Source of the DNA: a bacterium
GTDB taxonomy: Bacteria > Patescibacteriota > Patescibacteriia > UBA1558 > S5-K13
Reading direction: 5' to 3'
DNA: 64,000 nucleotides
NCBI GenBank assembly: GCA_035356975.1
Contig: DAORGW010000001.1
Span: 4,951 to 68,950 of the forward strand
In this document: positions 6,508 to 47,313 of the stretch, piece after piece
Layout of the letters: every line of letters starts with the position of its first letter
Position numbering within the stretch: position 1 is the stretch's first letter
Position numbers and translations under genes: made by a program
Notes under the pieces: generated by a model
The model's database searches: none
The model's input: only the letters and a program-made list of their open reading frames with translations
What the model was told of the DNA's origin: nothing

Positions 6508-7695
6508 CTATAGTAATGTTTGTATGTGATTTAACATTTGATCAACTTTTTTTTCCCAAGTATGATCTTTTATAAATTTTATTCTGTTTTCTATTTTTTC
6601 TTGTGAATTATTATTTAATTCTTCCTGAATTAAAATATTAAATTTTTCAAAATCATTTGCAACAGAGACAATATTTTTAAATTGTTCTACTCCGGGTGCA
6701 TCAGTTGTAACAACCGGAACTCCACAAGCCAAATATTCATAAATTTTCATGGGGCATGTATATTTTATAAAATCATTTAGCAAATGTGGAATGATTCCCA
6801 CATCAAATTGATTTATGTAATCAGGGGTTTCTTTATAACTTTTTTTACCGAGTAGATATATATTTGAATATGCTTTTAATAATTTTTCGTGTTCTTTGTC
6901 CCATATCGGACCAATTAGAACTATTGATTTATCTAGATTTTTTTTAGCAATGTATTCAATTAAATCAAGATTTATTCTGTTTTCTTGAATTATTCCTACA
7001 TATCCAATTATAGGATGATGAATTTTAGCTATATCATTGTTTATTAATTTGCTTTTCATCATGTAGTGAGCCAAATCAACACCCTGGGTTATGTGAAATA
7101 TATTGTCTTTTCTTGGGCTAAAAATTTCTTCGCCACTTTTTGAAAGCACAAAAATTATATTTGCCCTTTCTTTGATTTTTTTATAATTTTCTTCTATTTT
7201 TATTTTGATTTTTTTATAACTTGCATGCTCACACCAATTATCAACAGTATCAAAAACAGACACAGAATATTCAATTCCATCAAAATATTCTACATTTATT
7301 GGATAATAGGACCACAGTATTATATTTTTATATCCATTTTTTTTCAAATATCTGTTTAGATTGCGAAGCATTTTTTTCATTGAGAAAATATTAAAAATAG
7401 TTGAGTAAACCGTGACTTTTTCTTCTGGTTGATAGATTTTTGTAAATCGTGATTTTTTTATTACAGTTCCTTTTGTGTTTTCTAATATATTTTCTTTATA
7501 ATTTCTTAAAGCCCTTTTTATGGTATATGGTAAATAATCAACAGTTAAAATTTTGTCGATTTTTGGATTATTTTTAAGTTGTTTAAAAATTTGAAAATTA
7601 CGATTACTTGTACCACTTTCCCATTCGCTGTAACTAGACATTGAAAACATAACTACATCAAATTTTTGTTCAGTTTTTTGTATTTTTTTAGGCAT
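6508..7695 (-). CDS. Glycosyltransferase, GT1/GT4-like
   Basis: C-terminal GT-B motif KIYEYLACGVPVVTT. 395 aa. Confidence 0.55.
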   Translation of the reverse strand: MPKKIQKTEQKFDVVMFSMSSYSEWESGTSNRNFQIFKQLKNNPKIDKILTVDYLPYTIKRALRNYKENILENTKGTVIKKSRFTKIYQPEEKVTVYSTIFNIFSMKKMLRNLNRYLKKNGYKNIILWSYYPINVEYFDGIEYSVSVFDTVDNWCEHASYKKIKIKIEENYKKIKERANIIFVLSKSGEEIFSPRKDNIFHITQGVDLAHYMMKSKLINNDIAKIHHPIIGYVGIIQENRINLDLIEYIAKKNLDKSIVLIGPIWDKEHEKLLKAYSNIYLLGKKSYKETPDYINQFDVGIIPHLLNDFIKYTCPMKIYEYLACGVPVVTTDAPGVEQFKNIVSVANDFEKFNILIQEELNNNSQEKIENRIKFIKDHTWEKKVDQMLNHIQTLL

Positions 7696-8767
7696 TTAAT
7701 TCTTTTATTAATTTCTGCGTAATTTTTCCCCAAGTAAAATTATTAATTGTTCTTTTGTATGCATTTTCTCCTAATTTTTCTCTTAAATTATCATCTTTTA
7801 ATAATTTTCTTATTGAATTTTTTAATTCTTCTAGATTTTCATCATTTATTAGTAGGCCGCTTACATTGTCAATAACAGCTTCTTTTGCACCACCTGAGTT
7901 TGAGGCTAAGCTTGGTTTTTTAAATAAGGCGGCCTCAAGATAAACTATTCCAAATCCTTCCGTATCATTTTTTGTCTCAAGGCTTACCATTGCAAAAATA
8001 TCACATATTGAATAAAAATAGGGTAATTCTTCATCTGTTACATCTTCTAAAAATATAATATTTTTGTTATCACGTGCTAAATTTTTCAAATATTCTAAAT
8101 TATCCCCAGTTCCAGCTATTAAATATATTAAATTTTGAAATTCATTTTTTAATTCATTTGTGGCTTTTATGATAAATTCGTGATTTTTTCTTTTTATAAT
8201 ACGCCCCACCGTTAAAATTATTTTTTTATTCTCCAAATTATATTTTTTGATAATTGCTAATTTTTTTTCTTCATTTATATTTTGAAATTTTTCATTTATC
8301 CCAGGATATAATATCTCTATAGGAGTTTTTGTTTTAATTATTGATTTAGTTGAATCACTATTTGCAAAAACAATGCGCGCATTATCTAAAATTTTCTTTG
8401 TTATAAATTTTTTGATGATTTTACTCTGAGCAAGTTTTATATCAAGTCCATGAATAAAAATATAATAATTTATTTTTAATGATTTTTTTATAAAATAAGC
8501 ATATTTTCCAATGGGCAAGATATTACCCACAATAATTTTTTCTATTTTTTCATCACTTACTATTTTTTTAATTTGATTTATGGTTGTAAAAAAATGGCAT
8601 ATTCCAAAATTTAAATCTTTTCTTATTATATTTTTTTCTTCTTCGCCTTTTACATTTGTAAGAACAACTAATTCATCATTAGGAAAATTTTTGAAAATAT
8701 TATAATAATAATTTGATATTCCACCACGATTTGGTAAAAAGTCAAGTGTTATTAAAAGTGTCTTCAT
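7688..8767 (-). CDS. Glycosyltransferase family 4
   Basis: EGFGIVYLEAALFKKPSLASNSGGAKEAV is the classic E-x7-E GT4 motif. 359 aa. Confidence 0.7.
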   Translation of the reverse strand: MKTLLITLDFLPNRGGISNYYYNIFKNFPNDELVVLTNVKGEEEKNIIRKDLNFGICHFFTTINQIKKIVSDEKIEKIIVGNILPIGKYAYFIKKSLKINYYIFIHGLDIKLAQSKIIKKFITKKILDNARIVFANSDSTKSIIKTKTPIEILYPGINEKFQNINEEKKLAIIKKYNLENKKIILTVGRIIKRKNHEFIIKATNELKNEFQNLIYLIAGTGDNLEYLKNLARDNKNIIFLEDVTDEELPYFYSICDIFAMVSLETKNDTEGFGIVYLEAALFKKPSLASNSGGAKEAVIDNVSGLLINDENLEELKNSIRKLLKDDNLREKLGENAYKRTINNFTWGKITQKLIKELNA

Positions 8768-10538: not shown

Positions 10539-11222
10539 TTAGTCTTTTTTGAATAATAAATAGGCAATTGAGAAATTCATTATTAGTATAAATATGGGCC
10601 CCAACCAGAAAAATTTAAATATATTTATATGTATTAAATACCAATCAAAGTAAAATCCCAAAATAAAAGACACCATTGTTCCAAATATTACAATAAATAC
10701 TCTTTTTTTATTAATACCTTGTGAATTTATATATTTCATAACTAAAATATAATACGCATAGAAAAGCATTAATGAAAATAAAATCCCATATATTAAATGC
10801 AATGTTGAATCTGGTATATATGATATTTGATTATTTTCTATGTAGATGTTTGTAACCATTTGATCAGAAAATAAAATATAAAGAGTTATTATAGATAGAA
10901 TAAATAATAATGCTTTAAACACTATTAAAATTTTATTTTTTACTGTATATAAAAAATAAACTGAAAACATAAAAAAATTTATTAAAATTAGTGTGCCCGT
11001 TGCATATGTTAGATTACTCAAAATTTTATAAATACTATTATTTTTTATAACAGAAAGTCCAGCTATATTAATTGACCAAAAAAAAGCACTAATACACAAC
11101 AAGGAAAAATACCTTGAAAATTTTTCCCTACCGTTATTTTTTTTCATTATTATAAATCCGATAGCAATATTTATTGTTGCAGTTAAGAAGATTACCCCAA
11201 ACTTTAACCATTGTATATTCAT
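10539..11222 (-). CDS. Polytopic membrane protein, hypothetical
   Basis: About 6-7 hydrophobic segments and no recognisable soluble domain. Confidence 0.4.
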   Translation of the reverse strand: MNIQWLKFGVIFLTATINIAIGFIIMKKNNGREKFSRYFSLLCISAFFWSINIAGLSVIKNNSIYKILSNLTYATGTLILINFFMFSVYFLYTVKNKILIVFKALLFILSIITLYILFSDQMVTNIYIENNQISYIPDSTLHLIYGILFSLMLFYAYYILVMKYINSQGINKKRVFIVIFGTMVSFILGFYFDWYLIHINIFKFFWLGPIFILIMNFSIAYLLFKKD

Positions 11223-36046: not shown

Positions 36047-36157
36047 TGATTTTTTGATTTAAAAGGGGTTATGATTAAATTATAAAGCATGTTTGTAATT
36101 TATCATAGATTTTTTTTGGTAGCAACTGAGTGGAGTCAATGCTCAGTAGGAGGAAAA

Positions 36158-36331
36158 ATGGGAGAAAACAGAAACAGAGACAGGAGGAACAACAAGAGAA
36201 AGCGCGAACAGAGAAAAGTGTTTGGTCACAGTTCAAATGAAACAAAGACCAATCAAGTGAGAATTCACAAACAGAAAAAACACAGACACAATAAGAGTGA
36301 TAAAAAATATCACCAAGGAGGCACACATTGA
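36158..36331 (+). CDS. Candidate small, highly basic protein (57 aa, R/K/H-rich)
   Basis: gtaggaggaaaaATG is a perfect Shine-Dalgarno at ideal spacing. MGENRNRDRRNNKRKREQRKVFGHSSNETKTNQVRIHKQKKHRHNKSDKKYHQGGTH. A strong hairpin terminator follows immediately. Confidence 0.35.
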   Translation: MGENRNRDRRNNKRKREQRKVFGHSSNETKTNQVRIHKQKKHRHNKSDKKYHQGGTH

Positions 36332-39814: not shown

Positions 39815-40849
39815 TTATTGTGTGGCTCGACAGCGTTTTAAAATATACTTTAGATATCTATTGGCATCTCTTGCAGACTTACTTACTAATTTTAATTCAT
39901 CAGATGTTGGTTTGTAGTTGAATGAATATTTATCTGGATCTCCTGGATTAGTCCATGCTGTTGATATAAGATTTTCTGATCTTTCAAGGTGTTGCCTTAA
40001 ATTAGTTCTCGCAAGTTCTAGTGCATCCCACTGATCTTTGCATTGATTATTGTAATGAAAATCCTGAAGATTTTTGTTAATTACCACCTCAATATCTCTA
40101 AAGCCTTTAATTTTTTTGTAATACGGAATTTCTTTATATACTCCTTTAATTCTGTCTTTAATCCACTTTACTCTCTTTTTTAATTGTGCTTTTAGTGTGT
40201 TATATTCCTCAATTGTATTAACTGTGACATTATCGGCTATAAGATTTTTTGCTTCAGTTACATTTCCTCTAATTTGTACAACTCTTTGTAATAGCATAGT
40301 TGAATCAGATTCTCTCATTTTGGATTTGTCTTTATTTATTTTAATTACTGCTTTTCCTTCATCAGAAAGTTGTGTTTCTAGTTTTGTAAAAGATTTAGAG
40401 TAGCTTTTTTTTAGAGAATTAAGTTTTTTAATAAGCGAGCTATTGGTTGTGCTTGCCGAAACTGTTTGAGAGTAACGAGATTCTCCATTTTCATTAACTG
40501 CCGTTACATAATAATATTTAGTTGTTCCTTTTGGAAGACCCGTATTTTCATATGAAAGTTCTGAGAGTTGTTCCAAAGTATATATTTTTACAAATGATCC
40601 GTCTCTTGTGTCACTACGATAAATGTTATATGATGTAGCTCCAGTAGAAGCATGCCAGGATATTTTTATTGTTGAATCATTGATGCCCGAAGCGGTAACG
40701 GATGTTGGTGGTGTTGGAGGAACTTCATTTATTTCATCTGCTGGTATATCACCCGTTGGGGGATGAATTTGGGCCAAAACACTCGTAATAAATATTACTG
40801 GCAACAATATTGTGAGAAATATTATCACTAATAAATTAATTTTTTTCAT
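39815..40849 (-). CDS. Secreted fibronectin type III domain protein, hypothetical
   Basis: Signal peptide, then an FN3-like segment (PTSVTASGINDSTIKISWHASTGATSYNIYRS...YYYVTAVNENGES) and a helical C-terminal half. Confidence 0.5.
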   Translation of the reverse strand: MKKINLLVIIFLTILLPVIFITSVLAQIHPPTGDIPADEINEVPPTPPTSVTASGINDSTIKISWHASTGATSYNIYRSDTRDGSFVKIYTLEQLSELSYENTGLPKGTTKYYYVTAVNENGESRYSQTVSASTTNSSLIKKLNSLKKSYSKSFTKLETQLSDEGKAVIKINKDKSKMRESDSTMLLQRVVQIRGNVTEAKNLIADNVTVNTIEEYNTLKAQLKKRVKWIKDRIKGVYKEIPYYKKIKGFRDIEVVINKNLQDFHYNNQCKDQWDALELARTNLRQHLERSENLISTAWTNPGDPDKYSFNYKPTSDELKLVSKSARDANRYLKYILKRCRATQ

Positions 40850-40899
40850 GGTTTTATTTTTAATTATTTATAATAATAGATATTTTTAGTTTTTATAAA

Positions 40900-41226
40900 T
40901 TATTCTTCGTCTGCAAAATCTTCTTCTATTGAATCAACATCTTTTATGTCAGCATCATTTTCATTATCAATGTTATCAATATTAGATAAAAGTTTGTCAA
41001 TGTCATCAAAGTCTGAGGTTTTATTAATTTCATCTATTTCGCTTTCATTTAGTCTTTCCCCGATTTCATTATTTTCATTAGGGGTTCCATCACCACTTTC
41101 CGGAAAACCCATATTTTGCTTTTGTTGTATTAAGTCTTGTTGTTCTTGTGTTTTGTTTTGTTTTGTACACCCAGTAATCGTGAAACAAAATAAAACAATC
41201 AGAAATAAATAAAAAGCTTTTTTCAT
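40900..41226 (-). CDS. Small acidic lipoprotein, hypothetical
   Basis: Lipobox LFCFTITGC, then a Q/D/E-rich low-complexity tail. Confidence 0.4.
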   Translation of the reverse strand: MKKAFYLFLIVLFCFTITGCTKQNKTQEQQDLIQQKQNMGFPESGDGTPNENNEIGERLNESEIDEINKTSDFDDIDKLLSNIDNIDNENDADIKDVDSIEEDFADEE

Positions 41227-41343
41227 TTTTTTGTTTTTTTAATTATTATTTTAATATATATTTAATTATAATACTTTTAAAAATTTACACAAATTATTGA
41301 CTATTGATTATTTATATTGTAAGATGTCATATAATCGATATCC

Positions 41344-41892
41344 ATGGGAGGAATCATGATTGAACAAGTAAAAGTTGGGACTGATAATGTCCTATCGCTC
41401 GAAGATCAGGCTGAAATTTATGTACAATTAGGCCAATTATTAAAAAAATCCAATCTCTCAGCATCAAAGTCCTTTAAGAGGTTAATTAATGAAATGATCT
41501 CGGACTTCAAGGGCTTTAAACCATGTGGAAATATGGGAGATGTTGTTGTTTGGCCCAAGATGCCATTAAGGTTTCTCAATTTTCGTGAGATTGGATTATT
41601 TCAACACTATTTTTATGTTGAACAAGATGTTGTTTTAAATTCCATCCAGGAAATGAGCCAAGTAAAAATAGAACCCTATGTTCTACGTATGAATAGTCAC
41701 GAAACAATGGGAACCCTCATTGAACTGGCAACCGCAATTCAATTCGGAATTATTAAATATTTTCCAGGAGACTGCATATCGGTATCCGGGGATATATATT
41801 TTTATTTGTCTAATTGTAATACTAATCCATGCTGGAGAATTCACAATGGTCTTCCAAGCACAGCGTTTCAAAAATTTAGAGTGGGACGCTAA
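41344..41892 (+). CDS. Hypothetical protein (orphan plus-strand gene with higher GC than its surroundings)
   Basis: GGAGG Shine-Dalgarno 6 nt upstream and its own hairpin terminator. 182 aa with no recognisable motif. Cys, Trp and Met residues and G/C codons are noticeably commoner than in neighbouring genes. Confidence 0.5.
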   Translation: MGGIMIEQVKVGTDNVLSLEDQAEIYVQLGQLLKKSNLSASKSFKRLINEMISDFKGFKPCGNMGDVVVWPKMPLRFLNFREIGLFQHYFYVEQDVVLNSIQEMSQVKIEPYVLRMNSHETMGTLIELATAIQFGIIKYFPGDCISVSGDIYFYLSNCNTNPCWRIHNGLPSTAFQKFRVGR

Positions 41893-41908
41893 GAAAAAAT
41901 ATTTATCT

Positions 41909-41945
41909 ATAGCTGGTCTTGTAGGGACCAGCTATTGTTTTTTAA
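41909..41945. terminator. Hairpin terminator (9-bp stem tagctggtc/gaccagcta) overlapping the stop codon of the convergent CYTH gene
   Basis: tatagctggtc-ttgtagg-gaccagctat followed by tgtttttt. Confidence 0.45.
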
Positions 41946-42456
41946 ATTTTTTAAGTAACTCAACTGTCGATATTAAAAGACACTTATTCTTTTTTATTCC
42001 TAGTAATTTTGCATATTCATAAATCATATCTAAATCATTTGCCTGAATTTCAAAAAATTCCGGAACAGATTCATATTTATCGTAATATTTATCAAATTTA
42101 AAGGTTAAATCTTTTAATGTATAGATTGCTCTATGGAATCTAGTCGATTCATACTCTACCAGCCCCAATGATTTAATTATATTTTTTGTTTCATGAAAAT
42201 CTGAGGTTGAAAAGCTATATTCCTCACGAAATTCAACAGCAGAATTTGTAATAGGTTTTTTAACAGTTATAAGAGTTTTATTTTCTATTTTTCTTACAAT
42301 TAATTTTGATTCATTGTTTTTATCTTGACCTTCTTTTATGTCAAAAAAAGATGCACATATTTCACCTTCAAAAGTTTTTATAGCACCAAGGGCTAAAAGT
42401 TTTTTTTCTATTTTATCTCTTTTTATTTTTAGAACCTTTACTCTTACTTCTTTCAT
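41932..42456 (-). CDS. CYTH-domain protein (CyaB/thiamine-triphosphatase-like triphosphate tunnel metalloenzyme)
   Basis: N-terminus MKEVRVKVLKI fits the ExExK start of CYTH. 174 aa. Confidence 0.55.
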   Translation of the reverse strand: MKEVRVKVLKIKRDKIEKKLLALGAIKTFEGEICASFFDIKEGQDKNNESKLIVRKIENKTLITVKKPITNSAVEFREEYSFSTSDFHETKNIIKSLGLVEYESTRFHRAIYTLKDLTFKFDKYYDKYESVPEFFEIQANDLDMIYEYAKLLGIKKNKCLLISTVELLKKFKKQ

Positions 42457-42493
42457 ATTTAGAGATTGTCAATTATTTTTTAGTTGTTATTGT

Positions 42494-43378
42494 TTACCAA
42501 CCACCAGATGCACCTCCTCCTCCAGATCTTCCGCCACCAAAGCCTCCAAAACCACCTCCGAATCCACCTCCAGATCTTCCGCCACCCAAGAACCAAAATC
42601 CACCACCAGTTCCAGGTTTACCATTATTTTTTGAAACAGCATAATCAAATAATAGTCCTAGTATTGTTAAAATTATAGTAATTATTGTTCCTATTAATAA
42701 AGTACCAATTATTAATCCAATTATTGCGCCCAGTATCCCACCAATTACACCACCCAGCCAAAACGATTTTGTTTTACCAAGTAATCTAGCGAAAATATTA
42801 AGAAAAAAAATGAATATAGCAATAAAGAAAGATATGGTATTTTCTGTTATTTTTGAGTTTACTTTTGTTTGTGATGTTAGTTCTATTCCTTGTGTTGAGG
42901 AAATTATTTGATCAACGGCTTTATCTATGCCGCCATAATAATTATTGTTTCTAAATTCTGGCTTCATGGTTTCATCTATTATCCAAAAAGATTGCGCATC
43001 TGTTAAATACCCCTCCATTCCATAGCCGGTTTCAATTCTTATTTTTCTATCCTCTATTGAAATTAGAAGCAAAACTCCATTATCATTATTTTTTTTACCT
43101 ATTTTCCAGTCTTCAAATAATTTTACAGCAAAATTTTCTATTGTATCGCCCTCTAGACTTTGAATTATTACTACACTAATTTCATTTGTTGTTTGTTTTT
43201 CAAAATCAGATAATTTTTGCTCTAAAGATTGTTTTTCTTGTGTGGTTAATGTATTTGTATAGTCATTAACAAACCCAGTTGGATTTCCTGGGTTTTGATA
43301 TGCATGTGTCTTATTAAAAATTATCAAAATAAAGATACACAAAAAATATATATTTATTTTGAAAACATTTTTTATCAT
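42494..43378 (-). CDS. TPM-domain (YgcG-like) membrane protein with a Gly-rich C-terminus
   Basis: TPM phosphatase-like fold region (VNDYTNTLTTQEKQSLEQKL...VLLLISIEDRKIRIETGYG), a TM segment, then GGGFGGGFGGFGGG. Confidence 0.7.
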   Translation of the reverse strand: MIKNVFKINIYFLCIFILIIFNKTHAYQNPGNPTGFVNDYTNTLTTQEKQSLEQKLSDFEKQTTNEISVVIIQSLEGDTIENFAVKLFEDWKIGKKNNDNGVLLLISIEDRKIRIETGYGMEGYLTDAQSFWIIDETMKPEFRNNNYYGGIDKAVDQIISSTQGIELTSQTKVNSKITENTISFFIAIFIFFLNIFARLLGKTKSFWLGGVIGGILGAIIGLIIGTLLIGTIITIILTILGLLFDYAVSKNNGKPGTGGGFWFLGGGRSGGGFGGGFGGFGGGRSGGGGASGGW

Positions 43379-43384
43379 AAAATA

Positions 43385-43939
43385 TTATAATTCAACTTTT
43401 GGAGCATTTTCTGTGCCCTCTTGTGCCTCAAAATATGTTTTTTCCGAAAATCCCATCATATTTGAGATTAAATTTACGGGAAGTTTTTTTATCAGTATAT
43501 TAAATGATTTTACTGTATCGTTGTATCTTTGTCTTTCTACTGCAATTCTATTTTCTGTGCCCTCTAATTGAGTCATCAGTGTTTGTACATTTTCTGCTGA
43601 TTTTAATTGAGGGTAATTTTCCATTATAACTAATAATCTAGATAACGCACCGTCAAGTTGAGTGGCTGCTTGAATTTTTTGATCAGTTGTTTGTGCTCCG
43701 GAATACTGTGTTCTTGCTTCTGCGATTTTTCCAAACACTTCTTGTTCTTGTTTCATTATTCCTTTTACAGATTCAACTAAATTTGGAATTAGATCAAATC
43801 TTCTTTGATATTGACTTTCTACTTGTGCCCATTGATTAGTGACTCCTTCGTTTGCATTTACAAGTTTGTTATATGTTGTCCAAAAGAATCCCGCTACCAA
43901 GACAACAAGAATTAAAATAATTAATAGTGTTTTTTTCAT
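43385..43939 (-). CDS. lemA: LemA family protein
   Basis: N-terminal TM, then NKLVNANEGVTNQWAQVESQYQRRFDLIPNLVESVKG. Confidence 0.85.
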   Translation of the reverse strand: MKKTLLIILILVVLVAGFFWTTYNKLVNANEGVTNQWAQVESQYQRRFDLIPNLVESVKGIMKQEQEVFGKIAEARTQYSGAQTTDQKIQAATQLDGALSRLLVIMENYPQLKSAENVQTLMTQLEGTENRIAVERQRYNDTVKSFNILIKKLPVNLISNMMGFSEKTYFEAQEGTENAPKVEL

Positions 43940-47108: not shown

Positions 47109-47199
<91 letters not shown>

Positions 47200-47238
47200 G
47201 TGTTTTATATTTAATTTATTTTTTAAAGAATTTTTATT

Positions 47239-47313
47239 TGGCTGGGGAGGTAGGGTTCGAACCTACGAATGTCGGCTTCAAAGGCCGATGCCTTACCACT
47301 TGGCTACTCCCCA
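47239..47313 (-). tRNA. tRNA-Gln (anticodon UUG), U1-A72, CCA encoded
   Basis: The reverse complement reads TGGGGAGTAGCCAAGTGGTAAGGCATCGGCCTTTGAAGCCGACATTCGTAGGTTCGAACCCTACCTCCCCAGCCA. Anticodon stem TCGGC/GCCGA with loop CUUUGAA. Confidence 0.8.

Follow-up and report, generated by a model that had tools for sequence, protein, structure and literature searches.

A hypervariable orphan gene in a fixed slot of a Patescibacteria clade, with alleles that are probably old and exchanged by recombination

We found that the coding sequence of an orphan gene on the plus strand of the window (the whole 64,000-nt stretch of Patescibacteria DNA analyzed here) is a sharply bounded hypervariable cassette within conserved regulatory flanks. 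The explanation that we favor overall, and consider probable, is that deep allelic lineages of a clade-specific gene have been exchanged in a fixed slot by recombination. Such allele replacement would explain the foreign look of the window's allele despite a gene that is ancestral to its clade.

An independently transcribed gene of atypical composition

The GC content of the window is 27%. Its ORFs of at least 100 aa number 63, of which 56 are on the minus strand and seven on the plus strand. The original prediction had singled out a 182-aa ORF among these few as GC-richer than its neighbors, and both points held up. The ORF (41344–41892, plus strand, with the stop codon TAA at 41890–41892) ranks at the top of the 63 in GC (0.359 vs. 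a mean of 0.275, z = 2.3) and in third-position GC (GC3; 0.317 vs. 0.167 ± 0.028, z = 5.3), with third-position C and G each at about twice the genome value. Its codon usage is the most atypical in the window (mean log synonymous-codon probability, z = −3.9), and its composition is clearly outside the window range. A protein rich in Cys, Trp, and Met had also been described. Met is indeed enriched (second among the 63 ORFs, z = 2.2), Cys is only mildly raised (z = 0.9), and Trp is close to the mean (z = 0.1); the contents of Lys and Ile are low. By our own arithmetic, the chance of a 182-codon open frame at this composition is about 2e-6.

The predicted GGAGG ribosome-binding site is present as a Shine–Dalgarno sequence, GGGAGG (41346–41351, plus strand, read from the sequence), and lies inside the 182-aa reading, which makes the second ATG, at 41356, the likely start (CDS 41356–41892, 178 aa). 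An ENA gene call of 178 aa and an alignment of five lineages back this choice; in the alignment an invariant GGAGGAA stands 4–6 nt ahead of a conserved start ATG. The "MGG" N terminus of several gene calls is this conserved Shine–Dalgarno sequence translated as protein, and the ATG at 41356 is most likely the real start.

A near-consensus, sigma-70-like promoter was found by promoter scan on the plus strand. Its −35 hexamer is TTGACT (41297–41302; TTGAC is invariant in the five aligned lineages) and its −10 hexamer, after a 17-nt spacer, is TAAGAT (41320–41325; invariant in the five). Much of the DNA of the 5′ UTR is kept in all five lineages, alongside the promoter hexamers and the Shine–Dalgarno sequence. 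At the other end, a terminator scan recovered the clean hairpin that had been predicted, at 41909–41943; a 12-bp hairpin (41909–41935) is followed by a T-run and is the sole terminator-like site in 40800–42600. The hairpin overlaps the stop codon of a convergent CYTH-domain gene, and its inverted repeat runs into an A-tract and a T-tract; it probably serves both genes as a bidirectional terminator. All five lineages have a hairpin at this position, but its stem sequence differs from one to the next. The orphan gene is an independently transcribed unit, with its own sigma-70-type promoter, a strong Shine–Dalgarno sequence, and a terminator in common with the CYTH gene.

The CYTH gene (41932–42456, minus strand; Pfam PF01928, E = 1.2e-9; 66%–84% amino acid identity across lineages) forms the 3′ boundary of the variable cassette. 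Beyond it, Pfam identified TPM-domain and LemA genes, confirming the convergent placement against a CYTH–TPM–LemA run that had been read from the sequence. Relatives of the TPM-domain protein, like the records in which the orphan homologs lie, assign the organism to the Patescibacteria (CPR). The 5′ boundary is a divergent gene for a small acidic lipoprotein with an ITGC lipobox (40900–41226, minus strand, from the ORF translation), syntenic in all lineages. This gene heads a block that encodes an fn3-like secreted protein, NuoE, NuoF, and the [FeFe]-hydrogenase large subunit (HydA).

Two further features of the neighborhood are recorded here as observations. The C terminus of the TPM-domain protein (42515–42610, minus strand) is a Gly-rich low-complexity tail (GGGFGGGRSGGG...) encoded by imperfect direct repeats with 12/36-nt spacing; the length differs between lineages, at 294 aa here and 300 aa in a related contig (L003, below). 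At 36089–36331, between release-factor and hydrogenase genes, an 80-aa plus-strand ORF is extremely rich in Arg, Lys, and His. It is called as a gene in a JGI record, has no Rfam match and no Pfam match on record, and falls in a 600-bp bin where both GC skew and AT skew are reversed.

Homologs in the same slot of six lineages

The original prediction had called the gene a singleton. Contigs anchored on TPM and CYTH contradicted this, with homologs in the identical slot and orientation in five other lineages: L003 (JAQVMR01, Patescibacteria STF1_138), L036 (GCA_019248475), L041, L037–L040 (GCA_964386425 and Logan assemblies), and L051. The comparison thus covers six lineages, all of them MAG or metagenome contigs. 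Homologs are collinear across the six and have 178–200 aa; the protein of L037–L040, only 17%–21% identical to that of the window, is collinear over its full length and has residual motifs in common with it. The order CYTH–orphan–lipoprotein–hydrogenase is constant across the window, L003, L036, L037–L041, and L051. Upstream of CYTH, gene content varies: TPM and LemA are found in the window (41932–43939), L003, and L036; NUDIX precedes CYTH in L037–L040 and L051, with VTT further upstream; and VTT precedes CYTH in L041.

Larger collections added little to this picture. A word-indexed search of 5.8 billion clusters returned the orphan protein itself as the sole match, and phmmer, run exhaustively on 1.84 billion representatives, brought up two further relatives at 36%–37% identity (three clusters in total). 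Homologs outside the clade were absent from a 15-billion-protein collection and from phages, plasmids, and viral contigs (tblastn against phages and plasmids had no match, and a scan of viral contigs was negative). A family HMM detected no further copy in the fetched loci beyond the known slots, nor elsewhere in the window. The gene was also absent from more distant CYTH contexts (L042 and L047–L050) and from the 33 Patescibacteria loci besides L003 that were anchored on TPM. The family is confined to one small Patescibacteria clade, always between CYTH and the lipoprotein/fn3-like/NuoE–NuoF–HydA block.

A sharply bounded hypervariable cassette

Against the window, amino acid identity of the orphan gene is 35% in L003, 38% in L041, 37% in L036, and 17% in L038. 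The corresponding values are 84%, 84%, 66%, and 83% for CYTH and 93%, 87%, 79%, and 80% for NuoF, giving an overall range of 17%–38% for the orphan gene vs. 66%–93% for the flanking genes. The boundaries are abrupt at the nucleotide level. Between the window and L003, identity drops from ∼0.9 in the flanks to ∼0.5 exactly over 41300–41930 and climbs back to 0.84–0.94 within CYTH, directly past 41950.

Synonymous positions of the cassette are saturated between these two genomes, unlike those of the flanks. Where a residue of the orphan protein is conserved between the window and L003, the codon is identical in 23 of 58 cases (0.40, where 0.49 is expected if saturated), vs. fractions of 0.79 in CYTH, 0.81 in NuoE, and 0.78 in NuoF (0.58–0.63 expected at saturation). 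By our own arithmetic, the difference between the orphan gene and its flanks is ∼6.6 standard errors.

Another variable block is the gene for the fn3-like secreted protein (39815–40849, minus strand), two genes from the orphan gene. Its amino acid identity to the window is 34%–36% in L003 and L036 (with a different length), 82% in L041, and 72% in L038, a pattern that is likewise discordant with the flank phylogeny.

Evidence on the history of the alleles

Trees of the cassette and of its surroundings disagree. A quartet tree of the orphan gene groups the window with L036 and L003 with L041, and one of concatenated CYTH, NuoE, and NuoF groups the window with L003 and L041 with L036, each in 1000 of 1000 bootstraps; these quartets are distance-based and, at 30%–40% identity, exposed to long-branch effects. 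The alleles of the window and L003 are about equally distant from the outgroups (37% vs. 33% identity to L036; 17% vs. 18% to L038). With no excess distance for the window allele, a long window-specific branch is unlikely.

The one unsaturated pair, L051/L038, allowed rates to be compared directly. The dS of the orphan gene (0.179) is close to that of CYTH (0.154) and the fn3-like gene (0.129), suggesting an ordinary mutation rate. Its dN/dS is 0.22, above the 0.02–0.13 of housekeeping genes and below the 0.31 of the fn3-like gene. The orphan protein is constrained yet fast-evolving.

The same pair carries a trace of recombination. Across the block fn3-like–lipoprotein–orphan–CYTH–VTT, dS is 0.07–0.21, vs. 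0.37–0.46 in the flanking HydA, NuoF, NuoE, NUDIX, and GNAT genes; synonymous differences per site are 89.5/646 in the block vs. 275/840 in the flanks, ∼8 standard errors apart by our own arithmetic. The pattern indicates that a ∼4-kb block was moved by recent homologous recombination between two Patescibacteria lineages. The low-dS block extends over ∼3300–7300 in L051 and ∼4800–8800 in L038. This directly seen event spanned the 4-kb block, not the orphan gene alone, and no near-identical orphan allele common to distant genomes was found among the six lineages. We therefore infer replacement of the orphan gene itself from the tree discordance together with the synonymous saturation.

Variation within species is slight. 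Within a species, contigs from several samples carry a single orphan allele, with zero to one differences. Two strains of the window organism differ once in 6.5 kb, and this single event is V27I in the orphan gene. L037 and L039 differ from L038 in short tracts, none of them inside the orphan gene. These tracts lie at 7254–7273 (the orphan–lipoprotein intergenic region), 7799–7820 (fn3-like), and 11040–11100 (HydA); the intergenic one, within a palindrome that resembles a hairpin and lies upstream of the orphan promoter, has the appearance of a replaced or inverted segment.

Targeted hypermutation of a DGR-like or phase-variable kind was rejected as a source of the diversity, given that dS equals that of the neighbors, that same-species copies are identical or nearly so, and that no reverse transcriptase is found within ±10 kb of the orphan gene. 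Saturated divergence between close genomes, combined with normal dS in L051/L038, instead points to old alleles that were swapped. In the mechanism that we propose, the protein would evolve fast while still under purifying selection (dN/dS about 0.2), with an ordinary mutation rate; allelic lineages would greatly predate the genomes in which they now reside; and homologous recombination in the conserved flanks would carry alleles between lineages, one replacing another.

Third-position GC and mRNA folding

GC3 is high in all five alleles measured (0.25–0.40 vs. locus means of 0.17–0.23), and elevated GC3 would seem to be a trait of the orphan family. Since it is raised in all alleles although they are mutually synonymous-saturated, it is not the mark of un-ameliorated foreign DNA. 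GC-biased gene conversion was also considered and proved insufficient, as GC3 is unremarkable in the neighbors that belong to the same recombining block. The excess is thus accounted for neither by recombination nor by recent import.

The mRNAs of all five alleles are more stable than dinucleotide shuffles, with z from −2.3 to −5.7. CYTH has a folding z of about 0, and genes of the window have a mean of −0.4 (SD 1.07), with the window's orphan allele at rank 8 of 63. Structure is hardly conserved across alleles; the alifold consensus is almost nil (−5.5 kcal/mol), and the few consensus helices coincide with conserved peptide motifs. Stable folding may be linked to the GC3 excess; candidate causes are selection on mRNA stability and a stay of the alleles in a gene pool of higher GC. 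As a separate observation, a 181-aa plus-strand ORF at 1262–1807 has a folding z of −2.5 to −3.7 and a GC3 of 0.198, at the upper end for the window.

Alternative explanations

The original prediction had taken the gene for a recent acquisition, a foreign toxin, immunity, or phage gene. Its atypical composition stands, with GC, GC3, and codon usage the most extreme in the window, and so does a horizontal component among the alleles; placement on the minority strand, the self-contained promoter–gene–terminator unit, and the lack of homologs outside the clade also suit a newcomer. The recency does not stand. All related lineages that were recovered have a syntenic ortholog (L003, L041, L036, L037–L040, and L051), and a slot, promoter, Shine–Dalgarno sequence, and terminator that are conserved in six lineages whose flanks diverge to 66%–80% amino acid identity argue that the gene is neither a recent foreign insertion nor a singleton. 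Nor do its surroundings suggest mobility: The flanking repeats are only low-complexity, AT-rich matches at chance level, no integrase or transposase occurs within ±10 kb, no tRNA adjoins the gene (the nearest tRNAs are 5 kb off, at 47110–47313), and the phage, plasmid, and viral-contig collections held no match. We consider recent acquisition very improbable; from its conserved position, the gene is ancestral to its clade. A still weaker candidate is a structured noncoding RNA, or another element with an incidental open frame, in place of a protein gene. GC-richer patches in AT-rich genomes often are RNAs, and the alleles do fold more stably than shuffles, unlike CYTH. Rfam, however, has no match at the orphan gene, a frame of 178–200 codons stays open in six lineages at ∼50% nucleotide identity, amino acid motifs are conserved, and indels are whole codons. 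Selection acts on the protein (dN/dS of 0.22 in L051/L038; pN of 0.26 vs. pS of 0.75 in L003–L041), and what consensus structure there is falls on peptide motifs. An RNA gene is, in our judgment, extremely improbable.

Strictly vertical descent deserves more attention, as extreme gene-specific acceleration, through relaxed or positive selection together with a locally raised mutation rate, could also leave a divergent gene in a conserved slot. Mutations might come, for example, from head-on transcription–replication conflict at a strongly expressed minority-strand gene, and the orphan gene alone faces the other way within a long run of co-oriented genes and has a near-consensus promoter and Shine–Dalgarno sequence. 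Consistent with acceleration, divergence is confined to the transcribed coding sequence and, broadly, grows with genome distance between alleles. The rates do not follow suit: In L051/L038 the gene has the dS of its neighbors, and same-species contigs (L037 and L039 vs. L038) have no SNPs in it. The orphan quartet conflicts with the flanks in 1000 of 1000 bootstraps while the relative-rate comparison shows no long window branch, and faster AT-biased mutation would push GC3 down, not up. We regard acceleration as unlikely, although less so than the two alternatives above, and exchange of old alleles in a fixed slot remains the explanation that we prefer.

The orphan protein and its possible role

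The protein has no signal peptide or transmembrane segment. An AlphaFold2 (AF2) model of low confidence (pLDDT 31–43) has N-terminal helices and C-terminal strands, and fold searches with this weak model gave no informative match. The product would be a soluble cytoplasmic α+β protein. Four closer alleles have the motifs WPxLPLxFLN, LFxHxFYxExDV, PYxxxM, (E/D)LAxAxQFG, and WR(I/V)H in common; conservation does not extend to the cysteines.

Searches of Pfam, NCBIfam, PHROGs, and PDB with the single sequence found no match, and searches of Pfam, PADLOC, PHROGs, and PDB with five members or a profile returned nothing significant. Pfam had no family at E ≤ 10 for any of the five members, the PADLOC defense models had zero families for them at the same threshold, and the best PHROG E-values were 0.03–0.18, each for a different family and a single member. 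The suggestion of a toxin, immunity, or phage-related gene drew no support from PADLOC, PHROGs, or the phage, plasmid, and viral-contig searches.

We also considered a very divergent member of the SUKH (SMI1/KNR4/Syd) superfamily, in which case the gene would be a lone immunity gene directed against a polymorphic toxin. The orphan protein has two features loosely reminiscent of SUKH proteins, "LPxxFLN" following the N-terminal helices and "DGGxxF" in a strand; its size, predicted α+β content, rapid divergence, and hypervariability fit as well. The profile evidence is contrary. Pfam-A, which is assumed to hold models for the SMI1_KNR4, Syd, and SUKH families, has no match at E ≤ 10 for the five members, and a PDB profile search returns no SUKH structure. 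The motifs are absent from the L038 allele, and no toxin gene adjoins the locus, the neighbors being CYTH and the small lipoprotein. SUKH proteins have been described as versatile binders of diverse toxins whose core fold comprises four helices and six strands (PMC3113570). Membership of the orphan protein in this superfamily is not supported, and we judge it improbable.

Conflict-related binding proteins, such as immunity proteins, sensors, and decoys, evolve in a way that resembles the signature seen here. We tentatively adopted this class as the most likely one, on the basis of the constitutive-looking strong promoter, the fast surface evolution on a conserved core, and the ancient exchanged alleles. 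Most plausibly, the surface of the orphan protein would be under diversifying pressure, with the protein acting as a binding, immunity, or sensor part in conflict with a phage, a competitor, or a host. A more specific proposal is a conflict-system protein with a new fold in episymbiotic Patescibacteria (for example, a stand-alone immunity factor, a phage sensor in defense, or a host-interaction factor), whose ancient alleles would be kept under balancing or frequency-dependent selection and shuffled among species, the GC3 excess and over-structured mRNA reflecting selection at the RNA level. We put this forward tentatively, as a possibility that we regard as unlikely in its full form.

Discussion

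The phenomenon is of a known kind, that of a hypervariable replacement locus or a taxonomically restricted gene; the orphan family itself is undescribed. Replacement-type flexible islands and other hypervariable loci, such as O-antigen or capsule clusters, occupy fixed positions and are subject to negative frequency-dependent selection. The orphan locus is like them in its fixed slot between conserved flanks, in homologous but extremely divergent alleles with sharp boundaries, in an allele history discordant with genome history, and in the recombination seen in its flanks. Unlike them, it is a single cytoplasmic protein of 178 aa and not a multigene cluster for a surface structure, and same-species contigs show one allele rather than several that coexist.

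Patescibacteria ORFans (CPR) offer a second comparison. The orphan gene resembles them in being small, in lacking a domain match, and in having no homologs outside a narrow clade. It differs in being syntenic and not a singleton, in its purifying selection and conserved regulatory signals, and in a codon usage that is anomalous in every allele. With phage "moron" units it has in common a self-contained, opposite-strand organization that includes a promoter and a terminator, but no prophage surrounds it and it has no homologs in phages or viruses. From SUKH/SMI1-KNR4 proteins (PMC3113570), which it resembles in size and divergence, it is set apart by the lack of a profile match and of an adjoining toxin.

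A foreign-looking composition thus need not mean recent acquisition; here the gene is ancestral to its clade, and its alleles appear old, fast-evolving, and exchanged. Patescibacteria have tiny genomes, and little is known of their accessory biology. Should the function prove mundane, the gene would merely be one for a lineage-specific hypothetical protein. The family is a small, defined target for work on structure and binding partners, with about 180 aa, six alleles, and conserved motifs. As a single-gene hypervariable locus that is predicted to be strongly expressed, it is a candidate marker of conflict with phages, competitors, or hosts, and of recombination between lineages.
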